Source: Eledone cirrhosa
Lineage: Eukaryota
DNA length: 64,000 bases
Reading direction: 5' to 3'
Assembly (NCBI GenBank): GCA_964016885.1
Contig: CAXHJY010000967.1
Location: 124,001-188,000 of the forward strand
The notes beneath the pieces were generated by a model. That model saw only the letters and a list, made by a program, of their open reading frames with translations, was not told the origin of the DNA and made no database searches. The position numbers and the translations under genes were made by a program. Within the stretch, counting starts at the first letter, position 1, and every line of letters begins with the position of its first letter. Positions 15,201 through 59,215 of the stretch are shown piece by piece.

Positions 15201-15366
15201 ATTTATTGACAGATAAGAAATTCTACATCTGTTTATTCCTCTCTAAGCACAGGCATGGCTGTGTGGTTAAGAAGTTCATTTTAGGACCACACTGGGAGGC
15301 ACCTTGAGCAAATGCCTTCTACTATAGCTCTGAACAGACCAATGCACACACACACATATATATATG

Positions 15367-15484
15367 TGAAAAATTCGGGACCCCCAACGGCTGAGCTCCT
15401 GCCGTTTCAACAGCTAGATCTGAACATTCAGATCTAGCTGTTGAAATAGCAGAAGCTCAGCCGTTGGGGGTCCCGAATTTTTCA
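15367..15484. repeat. Fold-back palindrome, 58-bp arms
   Basis: Arms 15367-15424 / 15427-15484 with 3 transition mismatches; the surrounding unit lies between CA/TA microsatellites. Confidence 0.95.
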
Positions 15485-16416
15485 TATTACCCACTTTACT
15501 ACCCCAAGTATCGAGTACTCTGTTTAATATAGAAATGGCTTTTACAGGACTAGAACTGTTTCATTCAAAAGAAATCATCATGATGTTTACAATCTACTAA
15601 TGTATTGAGTACCTTACTAACTGTGGTTACCTCCAATTGTACCCGACACACACACATACATATATAAATGTCTGTTTCAGTATTAACTGAATTTAGTTGT
15701 TCTTGTTTTACTAATGTTAATTGAAATATATCTCACTCCTTAAAGCCAACAAATAACCCTGTCTAACTTCCACTGCTATATGATTATAATAAGAAGTCTA
15801 TAATAAGATGTGCCTCACCCACATGTATCAACATTCACATGTTTTCACTTACTGCTTCAAAGATTTGAGATCTTGTAACATGTAATTTATATGAATTTGT
15901 TACTAACATTGCTGTCAGAAACATTGTAGTTTAGCACAGCCAGGCTACAAAATTACAAAAGTGACACCTCTGAAAGATTAAAACACTTTCATGTATAGAT
16001 TTCTTAAATTCTTTTTCCACTTAAACACTTGACTTTATAACTATCGCTACCATAAATGAAATGATAGTTAGTGTATACATTTATGTATGTATCCACTCAA
16101 GCATAATTAAAAATTTTGTACTTTATAGTTTGTCTATACTAATGTCATTGTGTATATATATGTATGTTTTAGTATTAGCACTTAACATCCTGTAATGGTT
16201 AAACAGAAAATATCTAACAGGTTTATCAATTCAAATGTTAATATTATCTTTACTACTGAACAGATCGTTGTGAAAATTTGCTGTATAAGAGTAAAGATTA
16301 CAATTGTTAATGTGATGCAGTTGTAGTGCTGTTTTATACTTTTCAAGAATGTCTTGCTAATGCAGTTTTATGTAGGGCAGGACATTAACTCAAATTAGTA
16401 ATTATTATATTACTTA

Positions 16417-22698: not shown

Positions 22699-24958
22699 TC
22701 ATCATCATCATCAACGTTTAACGTCCGTGTTCCACGCTTGCATGGGTTTGGACGGGGGTAGTCCACTTGAGGCAAGAGTGATTGTCTTGCTCGCATAGGA
22801 CTGTCTGGCAGGTTTTCTACAGTTGGATGCCCTTCCTAACACCAACCACATTTACAGTGTGGGTCTGGGAGGTTTTTACCGTGTTGCCTACACGGCCACA
22901 TTACAGCGTGGACTGTGTGTTTTTTTGTCGTGGCACCTACACGACCTCATTTGTTTTGGCCTGGATGGTGTGGCACCAACATAACTTTACATAGAACGGG
23001 GTGGTGTGGATGGGGTGGTGGTGGTGGTGGGACGGGGGGGGGGTATTTTGTTAGAGATGCCTACTGGCTGTAGTAGGTTTTACTATGTATTTAGGTAAGG
23101 CGGGTCTTCTCTGTTACTGAGTACCGCCAAAGGTCTCGGTCCAGTGACATTGTCTTGGAGAGGTGTAAGTGTGTGAGGTCGGAGTTTATCAGCTCGTCCC
23201 AGGTTTTTCTAGGTCTGCCTATTCCGTGGCTACCGTCTATCTTTATTGCCCTGCACTTTGTTATACAGCTATCGACTTTCATGCGCATCACGTGTCCATA
23301 CCAACGTAGCCTTCTCTCGAGTAAACAACATCTGATCCCTCTTATTTCTAATTTTTTCCTTAGTTCGTTTATGCTTTGCCGTTCACGTATATTACTGTTA
23401 CACATCCAGCGGAGCATGCAAGCTTCGTTCCTCTCTAGTCTGCGTATATCTTCTGCACACAATGCCCAGGTCTCACTGCCATGCAACATTGCTGTTCGTA
23501 TGCAGGCATCGTACAACCTGCCTTTCATTTTTAGGGAGAACCCTTTAGCAGCTAATAGTGGTATAAGCTCTCTGAACTTTTTCCAACCAGTTCTGACTCT
23601 AGCTACTGTACTTTCAGAGCACCCTCCCCCACTGCTGATTTTATCACCCAGGTAACGGAAGCTGTCCACTATTTCTATAGAACCCTCTGCGCAATTGAAA
23701 GAGCTAGTATTTTGTGGGCACTTGCTGCTACTTACTGCACCAGAGCACCGGCCACATGTAAAATCTATGTTCTTAGTTAGCTTACCTGTGATCCCACTAC
23801 ATCTTTTATGCACCCATACTTTGCATTTAGGACATAAAATGGAGTTTCTACCTACGCCTTTCCTACACACCGAGCACGACCATTTCCCAGAAGGGACCGC
23901 TGCCTTATTTTCTTTCCTACAAACTAGAACTTTAGTCTTAGCCAGGTTAATTTTAAGTCCTTTTGATTCTAGGCCGTGCTTCCATGTTTGGAATTTCTTC
24001 TTTAGCTCGGCCATTGATTCCGCTATGAGTGTCAGGTCGTCTGCGTATAGGAGTTCCCATGGGCAGCCGGTCTTGAACTCCTCTGTTATAGCCTGAAGGG
24101 CAATAATAAATAGTAGGGGGCTGAGAACAGAGCCCTGATGGACGCCAACTTTTACGCTAAACTCTTCACTATATTCGTTGTTAATTCTAACCTTGCTGAC
24201 TGTTTCTTTATACATGGCTTGTATAGCTCTCACAAGCCATTCGTCAACGCCTAGTTTTCTAAGAGCCCACCAGATAATGGAGCGGGGGACTCTGTCGAAG
24301 GCTTTCTCCAAGTCGACAAAAGCTAAGTAGAGGGGTTTACCTTTAGCTAGGTACTTCTCCTGTAGTTGTCGTACAATGAAAAGAGCGTCTGTGGTACTTT
24401 TGCCTGACACAAACCCGAACTGCATTTCATCTAGGTGAATTCTCTCTCTGATTAGTTGTGCTATTACTTTTTCCGTGACCTTCATGACCTGGTCGGTTAA
24501 ATTAATGCCTCTATAGTTACTCCTATCTAGGGTGTCTCCTTTACCCTTATAACAGTTAACGATGATGCTGCTATGCCAGTCCTTCGGAACAACCCCATTC
24601 TGTACGACTTGGTTAACTATGCGGGTGACCATGGTGTGTCCCACCGTGCCAGATGCCTTCAGCATCTCAGCAACTATTTCCGAAGGCCCAGCCGCCTTAC
24701 CCGTCTTCATATCCTTGATTGCCTTACTTATTATACTCCCCTCGACTAACACTGCTGGTCCCTCTATTGGGTCGATATGGGGGAGACTGTCTTTCTCCCA
24801 TTTATTCTCCTCATTTAGTAGCCTTTCATAGAGACACTTCCAAGCTACCTTCTTATCAGCGTCGGTGATGGCAAGTATGCCGTCATCGTTAAGTACACAC
24901 TTCTCCCCGACAATATCACGGTTTTCCTTGACGCATTGCCTAGCAATCCTGAAACACC
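22699..24958 (-). mobile_element. RTE-clade LINE, 5'-truncated, young
   Basis: Uninterrupted RT ORF, ~390 bp 3' UTR and (GAT)n tail (TCATCATCATC at 22699 on +); CpG-rich relative to flanks; no clear TSD found. Confidence 0.95.
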
Positions 24959-24968
24959 AATGAGACAA
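23091..24968 (-). CDS. RTE LINE ORF fragment: reverse transcriptase with internal C4HC3 PHD-like finger; endonuclease missing through 5' truncation
   Basis: RT motifs NYRGINL, QFGF, FVDLEKAFDRV, GVHQGSVLSPLLF, LLYADD, GLKINLAKTK, FRYLG; RTE C-terminus RRLRWYGHVMRM...GRPRKTW. The predicted start is not the true initiator. Confidence 0.9.
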   Translation of the reverse strand: MSHWCFRIARQCVKENRDIVGEKCVLNDDGILAITDADKKVAWKCLYERLLNEENKWEKDSLPHIDPIEGPAVLVEGSIISKAIKDMKTGKAAGPSEIVAEMLKASGTVGHTMVTRIVNQVVQNGVVPKDWHSSIIVNCYKGKGDTLDRSNYRGINLTDQVMKVTEKVIAQLIRERIHLDEMQFGFVSGKSTTDALFIVRQLQEKYLAKGKPLYLAFVDLEKAFDRVPRSIIWWALRKLGVDEWLVRAIQAMYKETVSKVRINNEYSEEFSVKVGVHQGSVLSPLLFIIALQAITEEFKTGCPWELLYADDLTLIAESMAELKKKFQTWKHGLESKGLKINLAKTKVLVCRKENKAAVPSGKWSCSVCRKGVGRNSILCPKCKVWVHKRCSGITGKLTKNIDFTCGRCSGAVSSSKCPQNTSSFNCAEGSIEIVDSFRYLGDKISSGGGCSESTVARVRTGWKKFRELIPLLAAKGFSLKMKGRLYDACIRTAMLHGSETWALCAEDIRRLERNEACMLRWMCNSNIRERQSINELRKKLEIRGIRCCLLERRLRWYGHVMRMKVDSCITKCRAIKIDGSHGIGRPRKTWDELINSDLTHLHLSKTMSLDRDLWRYSVTEKTRLT

Positions 24969-25198
24969 ATGTGATAGGAGAAATTCAAATAAATGATAAT
25001 GCTATCAATGATCACAATGTAGAAAAAGAAAATGCGTCACCAGCGTGATCAAGGATAAAATTTAGTGAACAATTTATAGACAGAACACTTTTCATGAAGA
25101 GTTGAGGGGAGGATAAATTAATTAATCAGATTCTTAAAACTTTGTTGCAGCTGGCAATAAACTTAACCTACTTATACCTGGTCCTCACCATATAAATA

Positions 25199-25995: not shown

Positions 25996-28154
25996 GCCAT
26001 GTGTTTCTATGATCTATACCTGTAATGAACACATTAACCAATGCTTTTAAATTACAACTCCTGATTCACTCACAATAGATGTAACATTGACAGTGTTGGA
26101 TTTAGGACAAATGAGGCCCTATGCTAGTTAAGTTGAGGTCCCTTACTTGGGGCCTGAAGGAGGTAAAAAATATTTTTGGCAAGAAGATGGGTCTCCTGAC
26201 CAACAAGGCCCTGTGGTTAAGTACACCTAAGCACAATGGTAATTCCAGCACTGAACATTGGGTAATAGGATTACAGCTGACTGATAGAGATTTGTGCATG
26301 TTTCATACACATGGAAAATGTGCATATATAAATTCATGAGACTACATATCATAGGTGCATTTGTTTTGTAGCAGAATTGAATTCTGCTTGTCATTTCAAT
26401 AGAAGACGTTATTAACATATATTCGTTTACAACGCTGATATTCATATAGACCGAGGAGTGATGAGATCAAGCCTGCCCTACATTTCCAATCATTTGTCAG
26501 TATATGTATGTTAGCACATGATGCATATTTTGAGCCCAGAGTAAGGTTCAATAGATAAGTCATATGAGGTTTTTGGTGTTTTATCTTCAAGTATATACAG
26601 TAAATAGAACACATACTATAAGATTTATTATCTTAAATAAGTGATATTAGTTACTGGATATCTAGACATACTTTTCAGTTTATAAATTTTAGATGAGATA
26701 CTCTATAGTGCCAATTAAATGTATAACATTAAAAAAAACATAATTATAAAGATAATTAACAAATTTGGGTTATGTCACGCATTCATTTTTGGTTTACCTT
26801 TAATGATAATATCGATTTATAAAAAACTTTTTGGGGGGGAGGGGGTTCTTTTATGATCTTAATGCAGAAATGAGAAGCATTGAGCTAATGACTAAAGTAT
26901 TTATTACAACTTACTACCATCTAATAATCCCACTGATATTATAATAATTATGATATCCTTGCCTAAACATAAAGTGTTTTTTACTTTAGTAATGTTGCTT
27001 GAAGTATCCTCAGTGTACTATTTCAATTATTTTAAGTACTGAAAGCAAAGACAACCTCTGTGTATTATTTGAACTCTGAACAGCAAAACAGTAGGTTAGA
27101 TATTGCAAACCAAGTTTAGCTTCCATAGGTTTTGGCTATCTCCAATAATAATTTATATATTAAGCAAAAGGTAGCACATGAATAGGTGATGTTAAATAAC
27201 CCGTTGGATAATTGCGGCACCATCAAAAACTGTGTGTGCAGTGTAGCTAAGGCAAACTGAATGTAAATAATAATAACAATAACAACATCAACATTGTTCT
27301 AATGTGCATAAAATATAACAAATCAGCTTTAATTTTTCATTTGCTTACATCAAGTGCTTTAGCAATTTAAAAAGGAAAATTAGAAACAAGTCACAAAATT
27401 AATTAAACCCTTCCTAAATGAAGTTAATATTTGAGAATTTGAAGAAAAGAAATGAAAACACCAAAAATGCCAATACCAAATCACCACTTGACATACACTG
27501 AATGCTTAATAAATGCTTAATCAACAATATTTTTAGCGAAATAATAAGAACTACAAAAATAGAATTGTTCAACAGCCGCTGAAAAAAGCTATATGATCTA
27601 GAACTTTCTAAGAAATAATCACAGAAAGATGAAGACAAGAAAGAAAAATGATGAAAATCAGAAATTTCCAATAGAAATAAATACACCCTGGCTTGTGCTC
27701 ATGCTGGAATAAATATAATGAAGCCTGTGTATTTGTGTGTTTGCTAAGGCATATTGAACATGGGACATTTGGCTGGTTACTGGACTTGCAACATTGAGAG
27801 CTAAGTTCAAGCCAATCTATTGCTGCTATGTGAGTGGTACAGACCTTGGGCAAGACTATCACAGCTCCCTCGCCGATGGAAGTTAGTAAGACTGCAGTCA
27901 TAATCCCATTTCACTGGTAAAGAAAAAATAGAGACAGCATCTTTCCATCATTCTAAACATACTCAGCACTTTAATGTAACCTCAGAAATTGCATTACATG
28001 AAGCTGTGCAGTATTTCAGCCAATCAGAAAAAAAGAAAATTTCATCTGATAGGCATCATGTGATGTAGTGAAAACAGGGACAAAGCTGTGTTTACATTTA
28101 TAATTATATAGTGAGAAACAATTGCAATACTGAATTCTCAAATGAAGTCGGATT

Positions 28155-32488
<4,334 letters not shown>

Positions 32489-33885
32489 TTTTAAAATGGA
32501 TTGAGATTACTTTTTCAATACTTTCTGAGGCTAATGAAATGTACCAAAAACCATACATTAATATACTGAGTCAACTTTTCACTTAATACTTAATATTCTG
32601 ATGCAAGTTAATAAATAGAGGGAACATTAATTATTCCGCCAAATTTTGATCTGCCAACAAAAAGGTAGAATGGCAATATTGGTATGATTAATTGAGATTA
32701 ATTTGAAAAGTATGTTGTTGTTTTTCTTTCCTATAATGGAAACATTCTACATTTCAAGTTATTTTACACTTGGTTATAAATATGAGATTGGTAAAACATT
32801 AAATCTTTTTCACAATTAATATATAATTAATTTATTAAAGTATAATGATCTTAAACAAACTCGGAAACACAAAACTTGCCCTGCAATTGGGTGGAATTTA
32901 ACTGGAAGGCAGAAACTGGAAACACCTTGAAATAAATATGAACAAGAGAAAAGGTAAGAAAAAGGGAAGGTGGCACTTACTTGTTAGAATTCAATGATGT
33001 GAAGTGTCTGGAGAGGTGAAATTGATGCCAGTAAGGGGCAGTAGGTGGCAAAAGGTGAGAGAAACAAGACAAAAAGGAAAGAGAAATGAAGGGAGAGAGA
33101 GAGAGAAAGAGTGAGAAAGGTGGGGTGGAGAGAGAGAAAAGTATAAAAAACCCAGCAAGATGCAGCAATTGACAAACCTAGTATACAGTTGACAGCATTT
33201 TACCGAAAACTATTAGTAAGTAACCTCAAAGTTTAAAAACCATGGCTACTTAATTCTAAAAACTAAATATTAATCACAATGCACCTATATATGTGTGTGT
33301 ATATATATATACAGGATGCTATTTTTCCATATTTAATGAATTTAATATATAAAGATACAACAGTGACCACATACAAGCTCTCCAATATTTCAATTCTATT
33401 AATGAAATAAGGAAATACAAAGGAATATCAGCATATCTACTACTAAAGTAATAGCAAGAAATTATTTTTATAAATTTATGAAGTCAACACCAAGTTGCAG
33501 ATAAATAGTTTATAAAACAATATTATGAAATTATATTCAAAAACAAACTGACTCCACAAACCCAAACATAATCTTGTTTTAAGAAAACATTTCATGAAAT
33601 GAAATTCCTAGAGTTCCTTTAGATAAGTTGAAGATGATATAAAATATTTTCTTAATGCTTACAAAATATACTAGAAAATTTGCTAAGATATTTTTTATTA
33701 ATATGTCTATTAAATTGAAAACAGCATATTTATTGATACAAATTTGTGGAATATTATTGTTTGTTTTTTGATGAATTTTATAACAAATTTTCATTAAATC
33801 TGTTTCAAAGTTGAATTTTTTTTGTGAAGGCTTTATGTTGGTTGACTATTTCGATGACAAGAGCTTTGTAATGACAGCTACACCA

Positions 33886-37720: not shown

Positions 37721-39665
37721 TGATAGCTAAGAAGATTAGGTCAAAAATATAAAGTACTGCAATATATGCAACATTTTTTAAAAATTTTCAGTAGATATTT
37801 GACTTTGGAAAAAGATTGTACAACAATATCCTATAGATGTTTGAAGTCGAGCTAAATGTTACTAATGTGTATAAAAGATGAAAATTATATGAAATATAAT
37901 AGACTCTCAGATTGACACGACTAACAATAAATGGACACTTTAAGTACATTAACTCTTTTGATACCAAACCACCTCTCTTTCAATGATACAAAACTGTTTG
38001 TTTTAAAGTATTTATATTTATCTCAAAACCTCCAATCATGATTTTATGCAAGAACCTTTAAGTTATATTCCAAACAACAGAAAGTTAATTGTATTACTAA
38101 ATTCCTCAAAATTGTAGATTATTTTCAAAGGGACTTGAAAATCATAGGCAGTGTCTTTCATTAGAAATATGATGAGATAAGAGTTCAATTGTAGCTGAAA
38201 GTTTGATTTTATGGTTTGTTTGATGAGGTAGATAATCTTGTCTCTTGCAAGATTAAATCAACAATGTGGTGAACCAACAATATTTCTCTCAGAGAAAATG
38301 TTTGTAGTGACTAAAAGAACTTTAGGGACTTTTTGAGTAATAGTAACAGATTCTTTCTGATCATAAAACAATGTTTATAGTATCAGAAGTGTGATGTCAA
38401 ATGGCAGTAAGATATGACTACAAAAGATAGATTATTAATTGCTGTTGAGGAATCGGTTGAATATAATTTTCTGAGTGTAGGAAGAGAAGCTGCATGGTTT
38501 AGTGGTTAGGGTGTTCAGCTTATGGTCATAAGGTCATGAGTTTGAGTCCTTGAGCAAAACACTATCCACATTACTCTAGTTAACTCAGGTGATTGAAAGG
38601 GCCAACCTTCACAGACTGCAGCATGCTGAATGTCAGTCACGTGTACATTAATCTGATGAGCAGGTTGTTCTGTTGATCAACCAGTGGAAGACTCATTGTA
38701 AGAGAGGTCCAACAACACAGAAAGACAGACTGAGTAATAGATAAGTTAGGAAAAAATATATGAGAGTGAAGCAAATTTGATGTTTTGGAACAGTGATACG
38801 TATGGATTAATATGGATTAATACATGCTAAAAAATGGAGGATGAACTAGTCCTACTTTTTTCTGTCTCTAGGGGCTTATATGCCCAACTTATTAAACTGA
38901 TTTTCATAGTTGAAAAACGTGTTGAAGTCATTAACTCTAAGTTGACCTAATATTCAAAAATTTGTAACTCACTCATTGGTTCTAAAAATAGATGGTTTAT
39001 TTACATTTGTGGCTGATTGAAAAGCTTAAAAAAGAGAAAGGTGTGGCCACCTCACTTTGGTGTAATGGAAGCACAGCTACATGGCATACAGCAGGTATGA
39101 GTTTGAGTCATACAGGTGACACTGTTCATTTTTTTCATCTCCCAGGGCTTACACGCCCAATTTATTAGACTGTTTTCCATAGTCTAAAAGTGTGTGTTGA
39201 AGCTGTTAACTCTGAGTTAACTTAATATTCAAATATCTGATTTTCTCCCTAAGGATCAACCCATCCTACCCATGCTAGTATGGAAGATGGATGTTAAATG
39301 ACAATGATGATGATATATATATGTATATATATATATATATGATGTGTGTGTGTATATATATATGTATATATATATTATGTTGGTACCATAAAACATCCAG
39401 CCCACACTGTAAAGTGGTTGTGTAGGTGTCACGTAAAAGCACCCAGCCCACACTGTCAATGTGGTGCGCGTTAGGAAGGGCATCCAGCTGTAGAAAACCA
39501 GCCAGAAAAGTCCTATATGAGCGAGAGATGGTCACCCAACCCAACTTGCCTCTAAATGGGACAAACCTGTCTAACCCATGCTAACGTGGAAGACAGATGT
39601 TAAATGATGATATATATATATATATATATTAATTCAAAATATTAATAAATATAGACATTCACGTA

Positions 39666-39750
39666 ATCAAAATATATTTTATTATATATATTTCGGAGGT
39701 ACTGTGCTTTTTTTCAGTACGTCCTCATCAGATAAAATATATAAATTGAT
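39666..39750 (-). ncRNA. Minimal type I hammerhead ribozyme fold (Penelope-like element type)
   Basis: Minus strand: ATATATTTTAT-CTGATGA-GGACGTACTG(aaaaaaagca)CAGTACCTCC-GAAA-TATATA-TA^ATAAAATATAT; 11-bp helix I, helix II with one mismatch, palindromic helix III, intact core. Confidence 0.8.
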
Positions 39751-39984
39751 GTACTGAAAAAACAGGACAGTACCTCCGACATATATCATCATCATCATCA
39801 TTTCATTTTACGTCCGCTTTTTCCCTGCTTGCAAGGGTGGGGCGGGAACTGATTGTGGCTTGATTTCTACAGCTTGATGCCCTTCCTAACACCAACCTCA
39901 TTTACAGTGAGTGCTGGGTGTTTTTTGCCATGGCACCTGCACGATCACTTTGCAGTAGAATGATATGGACCCCAGTCCCTATCA

Positions 39985-40128
39985 TCTCATTTCTACAGCT
40001 GAGTAAACTGGAGCAATGTGAAATAAAGTGTCTTGCTCAAGGAAACAACACATCACCCGGTCTGAGAATTAAACTCACAACCTTTCGATTGCAAGGCCAA
40101 TGCTCTAACCACTAAGCCATGTGCCTCC
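39985..40128 (-). mobile_element. Second tRNA-derived SINE family
   Basis: Minus strand GGAGGCACATGGCTTAGTGGTTAGAGC (A-box)...CCTTGAGCAAGACACTTTATTTCAC; relatives at ~38490-38710 (+), ~44815-45075 (-), ~17750-18040 (-), ~15250-15345 (+). Confidence 0.75.
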
Positions 40129-40495
40129 ATTGTCTATATTTATTAATATTTTGAATTAATATTAATAACTCAAGAAAACTTTTTTGTTGAGTGCTTCTAA
40201 TCTATTGTAAAACTATATTCATTGATTAATCAATGAACCTTGTTTAACTTTTGGTTATATATATATAATGAGAGGTACACACATATGTGCATACATACAT
40301 ACACATGTATATATACACATATACTTTTTCACAAGTATGTGAGATTGTGTGTTGTCGACCTTAACCAGTGTTGCTCTATGATTATGAGAGACAAGATAAT
40401 CGAAGTAATTAAATTGAATCGATATCAGAGCTATGTAACAATTATAAAGTAAGAAGAAATAGTAGACACAGATATATACCTATTCTTTCTTCAGA

Positions 40496-40734
40496 AATCC
40501 TAGTCATTTAGAACATTTAGGGTACATAATTCTTGTTAGTGTCATAGGTAACATGTGGAGAGTCAGGAGTTAAAAAGATGTTCTGCTTAAAAGAACACAA
40601 TTACAGGCAGCACTGGTTGAAAGTGTGTGCTGCCTGTAATTGTGTTCTTTTAAGCAGAACATCTTTTTAACTCCTGACTCTCCACATGTTACCTATGACA
40701 CTAACAACAATTATGTACCCTAATGACTAGGATT
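40496..40734. repeat. Fold-back palindrome, ~110-bp arms
   Basis: Arms 40496-40613 / 40627-40734, near-perfect apart from one ~10-bp indel and one substitution; 13-nt loop. Confidence 0.95.
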
Positions 40735-40760
40735 TTAGTAACATGTTTCGACATTCCCTA

Positions 40761-40813
40761 TGCTCCGATGATTCCAAACTTCCCTCTGGAAGAAACAATT
40801 GTCAGCAAATAAA
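40761..40813 (+). ncRNA. Minimal hammerhead ribozyme fold with one core change (CCGATGA)
   Basis: TGCT-CCGATGA-TTCCA(aacttccctc)TGGAA-GAAA-CAATTG-TC^AGCA followed by AATAAA. Confidence 0.65.
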
Positions 40814-40847
40814 TGTTCTAAACTAAAATTTGATCGTTTTAACACTT

Positions 40848-40886
<39 letters not shown>

Positions 40887-41390
40887 AAATGAGGAGAAGA
40901 ATACTGCATGGTTGCACATGGATAACATGTTATAAAATGAGTCCCTGATCAGTGATTTACCAACGGTCATAGGTATTTCATTGCATTAAAAATCATATAC
41001 CTCACGTTGGCGCAATAATAACTAAAATAAGTTATTAGGACAATTAAAACGCGTAAAGCGAGTGAGACAAGTAAACAACAAAGAGGAAAGCTAACCGAAG
41101 ATAGGAAAAGACACAAACTACATAGTTATTCTATCAGTATAAGCTGGGTGAATATATGAGCGAGTAGAAAATAGACCTTTCGAGATGAATCCGATGTAAG
41201 AAAGAAGGAATCGTTAACGTCGCGAAAGGGGGGAAGTGAGAAGGGGAGAAACAGTGAGTGAGTGAGTGGAAGTGTGAGGAAGAGGTCAGTAGAGAGAAAG
41301 TGTTAACTGACATGACAGAGGGGACGAAAGAAAGTAAGTGAAACAGAGAGAACGAGGGAGCAGTAAGAGAGAGAGAGAGAGAGAGAGAAA

Positions 41391-41443: not shown

Positions 41444-41683
41444 CATTGAGTGTTCTGTGATTGCCTCAAAACAAATCAAATTGTACATGCTATATATATA
41501 TATAGATAGATATCTTTCTTTATTTGCCACAGGGGCGTACAAAAATGGGACATTACAAGACGTGATGGCGTCTTGTAATGTCACATTTTTGTATACCCCT
41601 GTGGCAAATAAAGAAAGATATCTATCTATATATATAGCAAGTACAATTTGATTTGTTTTGAAGCAATCACAGAACACTCAATG
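41444..41683. repeat. Fold-back palindrome, ~117-bp arms
   Basis: Arms 41444-41562 / 41569-41683; 6-nt loop TGATGG; a few mismatches. Confidence 0.95.
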
Positions 41684-44319: not shown

Positions 44320-44780
44320 AGTTGAGTCAATAATCAGCAACCTCCCTAGTACTGGTGTCACAATAAAATGCATCCATTACACTCTGTAAAGTGGTTGGTG
44401 TTAGGGAAGGCTTCCAGCCATAGAATCCATGCCAAAGAGTTGAGAAGATCCTTCTGTCGTGAGTCATGACATCACTAGAGAGGTTGCCGTGTCATGAATA
44501 TTGACACAGGAACCTCTCTAGTGCTGGTGACACAAAAATGTACCCAATACACCCTAGAAGATGATTGGTGATAGGAAAGGCATCCAACTAAAGAAGCCAT
44601 GCAAAAAATGGGTTGAGAAGTCTTGAGGCACATCAATGACATGACAACCTCCCTAGTGCTGGTACCAAAATGAAATACAATTGGTGTACTCAGTCCATAT
44701 GAGAGGTCAATAGCTCTGATGAAGTACTGACATGGTGTGTGACAACCCATCCAACCCTTGCTAGAAGGAAAAATGATGAA
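44320..44780 (+). repeat. Tandem array of RTE-UTR-related ~130-170 bp module
   Basis: About three copies of CTAGTGCTGGTG.CAC..AAAATG.A.CCA.TACAC...GTGGTTGG...GGAAGG.C.TCCA.C..TAGAA; similar arrays at ~57540-57845, ~50930-51090, ~19815-20090 (-), ~18850-19060 (-), ~39380-39610. Confidence 0.7.
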
Positions 44781-54714: not shown

Positions 54715-54971
54715 GAGTACTGGAGGGTATAACACATGGCATTGGAGAAATCAAGTGAATGAAAACAATAACATCAATAATAAAAGATAATAAACAATAA
54801 TAAAAGTATAAAGAAGTTAAAATGAAAATGATATGTATAAATATATATAGATATGTTTCTTTATTAACCACAGGGGCACGAAAGAAGGGGACAAATACAA
54901 AGGGAGAAGTTTACATACAATAAAAACGTGTAAAATACTATGACAAATGCAATTTAAAAGATAGATAGATA

Positions 54972-58490: not shown

Positions 58491-59215
58491 TAAACAAGTG
58501 CTGCCTGGATAGGTACTGCTGCCTCATACCTGTTAGGTGGTAAGATATTATATAGCTTGTTTAGATTACCAGTACCTTTAATTAATATAAGTATTTCTAA
58601 TATATCTATATCTACATCTAAGCAAGCCTGTTTCTTAACAGATCAAGTTAATTTCATTCACGTTGACAAAGCATCCATGACACTTTCTTTCACCTTTGGT
58701 ACCATTGATAAATATCATCAGGATCTTACTGATATCAATAGCATTTTTGGAGTGAAAAATCATCTTATTGTTAGGAATTGTAGACAAGTGCTACCTATTC
58801 TTCCAAAAGCAACACAGACTGCTACTATTGATATCATCTAAAACAATCTCACTTCTGGCAGTATTTGAGACAATATCACCTAACTTGAAATTTGAGGGCC
58901 ATAGAAGAACAAAAGGACTATGCAGATTGGTTGCTTCTGCTTGGAAATGGAACCGCTCCAACTTCTTTGGTTAATATTAGAGTAAGTATGACACATCCTA
59001 TACCAGGATTAACATCAGATGATGTCCAAGTACTATCATTTTCATATATTTCTTTAAATGAGGAGATTTTAAAACTACTGCCAGGAAATGTTCAAACATA
59101 TTTTAGTACAGATCAAATTGTTTGTGAGAATTATTTAATTAATCTACTCCATTAGGAATGCCTCAATATAAATTGGATTTAAAAATCAGATCTGTTGTAA
59201 TATTATTACGTAATA

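Follow-up and report, generated by a model that had tools for sequence, protein, structure and literature searches.

A family-wide C4 hammerhead core at a probable Penelope-like element insertion with an inverted end in Eledone cirrhosa

Introduction

A long, nearly perfect hairpin followed by a minimal hammerhead motif in the genome of Eledone cirrhosa is probably a 5'-truncated insertion made by the machinery of a Penelope-like element (PLE) into a (TA)n tract, in which the inserted sequence is the 3' end of a high-copy repeat bearing the hammerhead and the hairpin derives from an inverted second cDNA. The analysis covered a 64-kb window (the whole stretch of DNA under study, 64,000 nucleotides of contig CAXHJY010000967.1), and all positions refer to it. 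The locus resembles a PLE end with a minimal hammerhead ribozyme (min-HHR) and its architecture is likely an ordinary, known one; the new point is modest, namely a family-wide U4C, U10.1-A11.1 core which strict descriptors would reject. The features of the locus are as follows.

40496 to 40626, minus strand: inverted 5'-truncated element copy (left arm and 13-nt 'loop'), whose reverse complement matches 40627-40738
40627 to 40850, plus strand: direct 5'-truncated copy, the 3' end (pLTR-like part) of a high-copy repeat
40718 to 40724, plus strand: right-arm position at which 10 nt were deleted, with a short direct repeat on either side (arm alignment)
40761 to 40807, plus strand: minimal type I hammerhead motif with a C4 core, U10.1-A11.1 and palindromic stem III; predicted cut after 40803
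40761-64 and 40804-07: stem I
40765-71: core CCGATGA
40772-76 and 40787-91: stem II
40792-95, GAAA; 40796-801, CAATTG; 40802-03, TC; 40808-13, AATAAA
40795 to 40802: 8-nt palindrome that could form an intermolecular stem III (computed energies)
40808 to 40850, plus strand: AATAAA and 3' tail to the (TA)n junction
40850 to 40882: (TA)n microsatellite, the likely insertion target

The window and its long hairpins

The window is AT-rich and carries many microsatellites, SINE-like repeats and broken reverse transcriptase (RT) frames, as in an animal genome. A stop-free frame of 636 aa, encoding an RT domain and a PHD-like finger, occupies 23091-25001 on the minus strand and is presumably RTE-like. 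A PIF1-like helicase fragment (58494-58841, plus strand, E 2e-10) is possibly a Helitron remnant, and a tRNA-like Rfam match below the gathering score (40062-40119, minus strand), located within a repeat with several copies in the window, is likely a SINE head. A compound microsatellite of 4.5 kb, rich in TA and CA, extends over 28100-32570 with a GC content as low as 8%.

The arms of the hairpin (40517-40613 and 40627-40723) measure 97 nt each, are 99% complementary and enclose a 13-nt loop. The left arm has a 10-nt bulge, past which about 14 bp more of stem extend to 40496/40738; the whole hairpin comprises about 111 bp. The near-perfect palindrome of 110 bp reported in the first-pass annotation is real, with a folding z of -22.6 and none of 100 shuffles equally good. 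Rfam miRNA matches at 39500-41000 all fell below the gathering score and were rejected as generic hairpin matches.

Five long hairpins occur in the window (765 nt in total, 1.2%), and the other four show 3-5 mismatches between their arms. Three of these others lack a hammerhead match, among them a 240-nt hairpin between TA runs at 41444-41683 (110 matches, 5 mismatches, 4 gaps); a linear relative is found at 54810-54893, which suggests that this hairpin may also be copy-specific. Further long hairpins lie at 15364-15487, MITE-like in look, and at 44470-44526.

The hairpin as an inverted copy of a repeat

The repeat family was characterized with reads and contigs from four of nine listed runs, aligned to 40600-40861 only at a likeness of at least 80%. 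X1 (contigs) and X7 (RAD reads) represent organism A, X5 organism B and X6 organism C. At this threshold 1028 contigs of X1, 729 reads of X7, nine contigs of X5 and one contig of X6 were aligned, and the best runs contain 0.30-0.35 of the sampled words. The segment 40627-40850 plainly belongs to a large multi-copy family in three organisms, depth not being equivalent to copy number. X7 read ends at 40638, 40709, 40800 and 40827-30 coincide with AATT sites and are accordingly read as RAD cuts.

At position 40627, 23 X1 contigs leave the reference into a common upstream sequence (agreement 0.84). The last 13 letters of this family upstream consensus are identical to the reverse complement of 40614-40626 at 12 of 13 positions, so that the 13-nt loop corresponds to the tip of an inverted copy. 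As judged from these alignments, 40496-40626 is the element written backwards and 40627-40850 the element written forwards, joined head-to-head with a 13-nt offset. The left-arm bulge had been considered as an insertion templated from the tail; this was rejected, as the segment is present in family members and was lost from the right arm. The inverted copy retains it, and the missing 10 nt appear as insertion rows behind 40721 in X7 (55 and 36 of 225 reads) and in two X1 contigs. A 13-nt tail word (40810-40822) recurs inverted at 40507-40519 and represents an internal family repeat, also lost from the right arm.

Both arms carry four letters (40651, 40689, 40691 and 40695) at which 88-99% of X1 depth differs from this copy. 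The arms themselves are distinguished by one substitution and one 10-nt deletion, that is, one derived change per arm: C>G in the left arm at the partner of 40708, and the deletion in the right arm. Independent ageing would predict 9.2 differences, against the single substitution seen (P = 8e-4), which indicates that the arms came from one template or were homogenised.

Within 40600-40861 no fold-back joint was listed for X1 (4 joints in all), which is weak evidence because short-read contigs can collapse hairpins; the joints between 40626/40627 and 40743 are read as effects of the inverted tip in the reference. None of the 17 listed pieces spans the 40626/40627 junction, and 40738, the end of the inverted arm, is absent from the best 18 loose ends listed, with 106 more existing. 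The hairpin is likely a by-product of the insertion of this one copy.

The 3' end and insertion by PLE machinery

The order of AATAAA and (TA)n given in the first-pass annotation holds, except that the tract begins at 40850, 36 nt past AATAAA, and does not follow it directly. The predicted cut lies 47 nt from this recurring 3' junction: other family copies enter (TA)n at the same place (records 7, 8 and 16), and 16 contigs (14 from X1, one from X5, one from X6) run past 40850-52 into shared element sequence. Since some copies continue and others enter (TA)n, the insertion end is probably internal to a longer unit. A possible second insertion end is marked by five contigs that depart from the reference at 40823, 27 nt before the first (agreement 0.64). 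No target-site duplication (TSD) was found, the best shared word being a 7-nt TA run more than 15 nt to the left of the junction.

PLE insertions are described as 5'-truncated, often with an inverted 5'-truncated copy at the 5' end, and as having an optional one-sided tail, a (TA)n bias and no visible TSD (PMC8557442). Their ribozymes have a helix I of 4-5 bp, a palindromic helix III and weak, dimer-only cleavage (PMC4209133), and the PAc protein nicks and extends both strands, with reverse transcription initiated at an internal RNA site downstream of the ribozyme (PMC11167929). At the present locus, the hammerhead motif is situated near the 3' end of the insertion, an inverted 5'-truncated copy stands directly at its 5' end, and the target is (TA)n with no discernible TSD, all as expected of a PLE insertion.

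A plausible course of events would begin with a PLE GIY-YIG/RT protein nicking both strands of AT-rich DNA. cDNA synthesis would then be primed on both target ends, starting inside the RNA, one cDNA beginning 47 nt downstream of the ribozyme and the other at the equivalent of 40738. Both would stop early and be joined head-to-head at their truncated 5' ends, giving arms which were identical at birth and which may each have gained one change since.

A single direct copy is present in the window, with neither a direct pLTR pair nor a tandem, as expected for short truncated copies. GIY-YIG domains were not detected in any of 16 scanned window frames (picked from 69) and no PLE coding sequence could be linked to the locus; the four RT matches among the scanned frames lie at least 10 kb away. 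Six probes of 10-12 letters gave no true match to Naiad, Chlamys or Hydra consensus sequences, in which line breaks can hide matches; one probe match to a Naiad consensus, inside coding-like sequence, was discarded as chance. Further points against a PLE origin are that the inverted arm ends 112 nt short of the direct copy's end, not 30-40 nt as in a typical tail, and that the core departs from the consensus in the literature both at position 4 and in the 10.1-11.1 pair.

Alternative origins

A monomer or fragment of a non-LTR retrozyme, an element whose short tandem units are non-coding, bear a type I hammerhead and are mobilised in trans via circular RNA, would account for 226 nt devoid of an open frame and for family sequence that goes on at both sides, the hairpin being again specific to the insertion. 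Retrozymes stem from PLE pLTRs and exist as solo monomers, as reported in 10.64898/2026.07.22.740005. This origin is nevertheless rather unlikely: the window holds no tandem copy, the read alignment has no joint that goes back (though the stretch may be shorter than one unit), and helix I has 4 bp, like PLE min-HHRs, versus the canonical 6.

A plain linear insertion that acquired its inverted arm afterwards, through template switching during replication, or whose arms were homogenised by conversion or cruciform repair, would directly explain the private letters of both arms, which stand at 1-2% of X1 depth at three sites, and other long hairpins do occur in the window (three with no hammerhead match). 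A further observation concerns the 10-mer at 40475-40484, 11 nt before the left arm, which is family sequence from just upstream of the inverted tip and occurs twice in the window, on both strands. It would suit a later inversion, and may represent the trace of a template switch, a stretch of microhomology where the 5' junction formed, or mere coincidence. A history of later inversion seems improbable, as the switch would have to fall 10 nt away from the truncated 5' end and would leave an 11-nt spacer unexplained, and as both good hammerheads of the window adjoin head-to-head inversions, like PLE insertions. Late conversion is compatible with insertion by PLE machinery, and the two can coexist.

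The first-pass annotation had proposed a second family with the same architecture. Such a proposal can be taken to mean a dedicated family in which hairpin and hammerhead are fixed parts and the long double-stranded RNA is functional. Two unrelated elements 0.7 kb apart, each with hairpin and hammerhead, and arms that are 99% complementary speak in its favor. A dedicated family of this kind is not supported and is very improbable: the family is linear through the tip in 23 contigs, with no listed fold-back joint in X1, the loop consists of family sequence in inverted orientation, two-sided changes between the arms could not be demonstrated, and the ribozyme takes a different position relative to the hairpin in the two elements.

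A fold-back artefact of library preparation or assembly, to which the word content of only 0.30-0.35 in the best runs and the lack of a listed piece across the junction could be ascribed, is hardly credible given that each arm has its own derived change relative to the family and that the other four hairpins differ by 3-5 mismatches between arms. A MITE or palindromic DNA transposon was rejected on account of non-terminal arms, a family that is linear through the tip and the lack of a TSD.

The hammerhead motif

The letters of the motif as first annotated were confirmed at 40761-40813. Two descriptors were used, a loose one tolerating one core mismatch and a strict one demanding a palindromic stem III with stems I and II of at least 4 bp. 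The loose descriptor gave four matches in the window versus a shuffle mean of 0.43, while the motif at 40761-40807 is the sole strict match, and none of 30 shuffled windows produced one. Scans of further sequence collections returned 0, 1 and 0 matches; the single one (L001) was dismissed as chance, being located in a bacterial chemotaxis operon and lacking both stem II and the palindrome. No match reached the Rfam gathering score over the 64-kb window, and none of the 49 matches obtained for 39500-41000 up to E 10 belonged to a hammerhead model.

Compared with the PLE min-HHR consensus CUGANGA...GAAA...UH, 12 of 13 core positions fit, the misfit being the C at position 4, and the closing pair of stem II is U40772-A40791 in place of the consensus G10.1-C11.1. 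An ATG inside the core opens a frame which stops after 14 codons. According to the computed energies, a dimer in the hammerhead form reaches -15.0 kcal/mol versus -3.8 for two monomers in that form (about 11 better). A competing rod, in which the core pairs with loop III, is more stable (-10.8 as monomer, -24.8 as dimer), and the cofold optimum of -24.8 thus differs from the hammerhead form at -15.0. Cleavage is predicted to take place only in dimers, within tandem transcripts of source elements and by means of the palindromic stem III, and would be weak because of C4. The copy at 40761-40807 is probably inert, as it has no partner in the window, has lost one stem II pair and can adopt the competing rod fold.

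A second ribozyme on the minus strand had been suggested by a half-core, which lies at 40740-40750 rather than at 40739-40750 as annotated. The half-core is there, but the suggestion was discarded: no 5' half-core was detected within one mismatch, and the letters vary in the family. Five 5' words with two mismatches were found, the nearest suitable one lacking stem II; the fold z is -0.44; and C or T stands at 40740 in 74% of X1 depth, with 40749-50 also varying.

The C4 core as a family variant

The CC core had been ascribed either to decay of this copy or to a family variant, with the consensus of genomic copies (CUGAUGA or CCGAUGA) as the proposed check. When the family copies were aligned the majority proved to be CCGANGA; as C4 is the majority letter in the reads, the core is a family variant and not decay of this single copy.

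Position 40766 (C4) has no variant row among the 40 rows listed, while copy-specific letters elsewhere do surface, at 88-99% of X1 depth. All six C>T places of X5 lie away from 40766, X6 has no C>T place, and two variant loose-end consensuses (11 X1 contigs, and one group of 99 X7 reads) also read C4. A minority of copies with T at position 4 is possible, because the 31 variant rows beyond those listed include C>T places of at least 5% (one in X1, three in X7) and 40766 is one of three CpG sites. Unlisted variant places were judged by tallies per kind of change; an assumption that all of them were below 20% was dropped, since eight X5 places are unlisted though X5 has few contigs.

Across the 13 core positions, the rows listed contain only changes at N7 and one at A13, the latter in the single X6 contig, in which one stem II pair is also broken. 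The tallies for X1 include no unlisted G>A, G>T, A>G, T>A or T>C place at 5%, and the core guanines and U16.1 are therefore steady at that level. Stems I and III show no variant among the rows listed. At 40777-40786 the main family has a G-C pair, which a subfamily replaces by A-U; this two-sided change was derived from matching depths in X5 record 14 and from the 11-contig loose end of X1 before 40787. In one group of 99 X7 reads, probably representing one locus, GATC replaces AATT in loop III and the palindrome is kept. Although few independent records carry them, the stem II and loop III changes suggest that the fold is under selection in source elements.

The A at 40777 is private to this copy, G being present in 98% of X1 depth and giving a sixth stem II pair; this copy has therefore lost one pair. 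Only 42% of X7 reads differ from this copy at 40695, and 54% at 40777. One contig each in X1 and X5 skips 37 nt within 40747-40785, which removes the 5' half-core (X1 depth 690), and possibly represents a ribozyme-less subfamily.

Comparison with known systems

The architecture had been described as shared with an element at 39.7 kb. The match is partial: both combine a hairpin and a hammerhead, but the inverted arm of the 39.7 kb element duplicates stem II of its own ribozyme, and at the present locus 22 nt separate the hairpin from the ribozyme outside it. The element at 39683-39786 (minus strand) carries a canonical CUGAUGA hammerhead with a palindromic stem III and an 11-bp stem I, and its inverted arm would sequester the ribozyme; it looks like a further PLE-type end that has an inverted copy. 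It matches only the loose descriptor, as without gaps its stem II amounts to 3 bp. That the present locus belongs to a second multi-copy hammerhead-bearing family of unrelated sequence was borne out by the read alignment, and blastn found no match between the two elements at E 10.

The motif agrees with PLE min-HHRs in its 4-bp helix I, a helix II of 5-6 bp and a palindromic helix III suited to dimers, and in that these occur mostly as lone genomic copies from truncated elements within large, variable families (PMC4209133). It differs from their consensus, CUGANGAH with G10.1-C11.1, by C4 and U10.1-A11.1; the core change that this source reports is U3-A8 (PMC4209133). The insertion is comparable to those of (TA)n-targeting EN+ PLEs such as Neptune (Craig et al., 2021, PMC8557442) with regard to 5' truncation, an inverted and likewise 5'-truncated copy next to it, a terminal (TA)n, the lack of a visible TSD and a ribozyme near the 3' end, and unlike them it has neither an ORF nor a direct pLTR pair, and its one-sided extension is 112 nt instead of 30-40 (PMC8557442). 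In Poseidon PAc of Anolis (Frangieh et al., 2024, PMC11167929) the insertion end lies inside the unit, as is probable here, and the target is likewise AT-rich, whereas the cut-to-end distance is 85-92 nt (from positions at 26 and 111-118 nt) versus 47 nt here, and the PAc ORF starts at stem II, where the core ATG of this locus leads to a stop after 14 codons. Non-LTR retrozymes (PMC7229834; 10.64898/2026.07.22.740005) are also non-coding and PLE-derived, with a type I hammerhead and a weak palindromic helix III, the difference being that no tandem array exists at this locus.

The same core change is known from a viroid U4C variant (cited in Perreault et al., 2011, PMC3088659), whose in vitro activity was considerably lower and still permitted infectivity. 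There it concerns one variant, and here it is what most copies of a high-copy genomic family carry, across three organisms. U4 has been treated as invariant, one survey rejecting any core change (PMC3088659), and the PLE consensus has U4 (PMC4209133). No report of a PLE family with C4 was found in the literature on hammerhead cores and on octopus or cephalopod Penelope ribozymes, a weak claim of absence.

Implications for PLE biology

A tentative and rather doubtful extension is that a high-copy PLE lineage fixed the U4C/U10.1-A11.1 core, which would cleave as a dimer and be kept against CpG decay to the canonical core, and that two-ended priming would be a steady source of near-perfect hairpins and thus of ADAR substrates. 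Loci that form long, near-perfect dsRNA have been described as making up an unusually high share in octopus (PMC5625713), which is relevant here only for an octopus host. If this extension is true, strict descriptors miss such families and genomic hammerhead counts lack a class; if the ribozyme is dead, the locus would be an ordinary repeat fragment. In vitro, PAc insertion was not prevented by mutations in the ribozyme (PMC11167929), and a natural high-copy C4 family with covarying stems would constitute a test of whether PLE hammerheads must cleave well. The locus also records an inversion junction with young arms, which bears on how the inverted ends of PLEs form.
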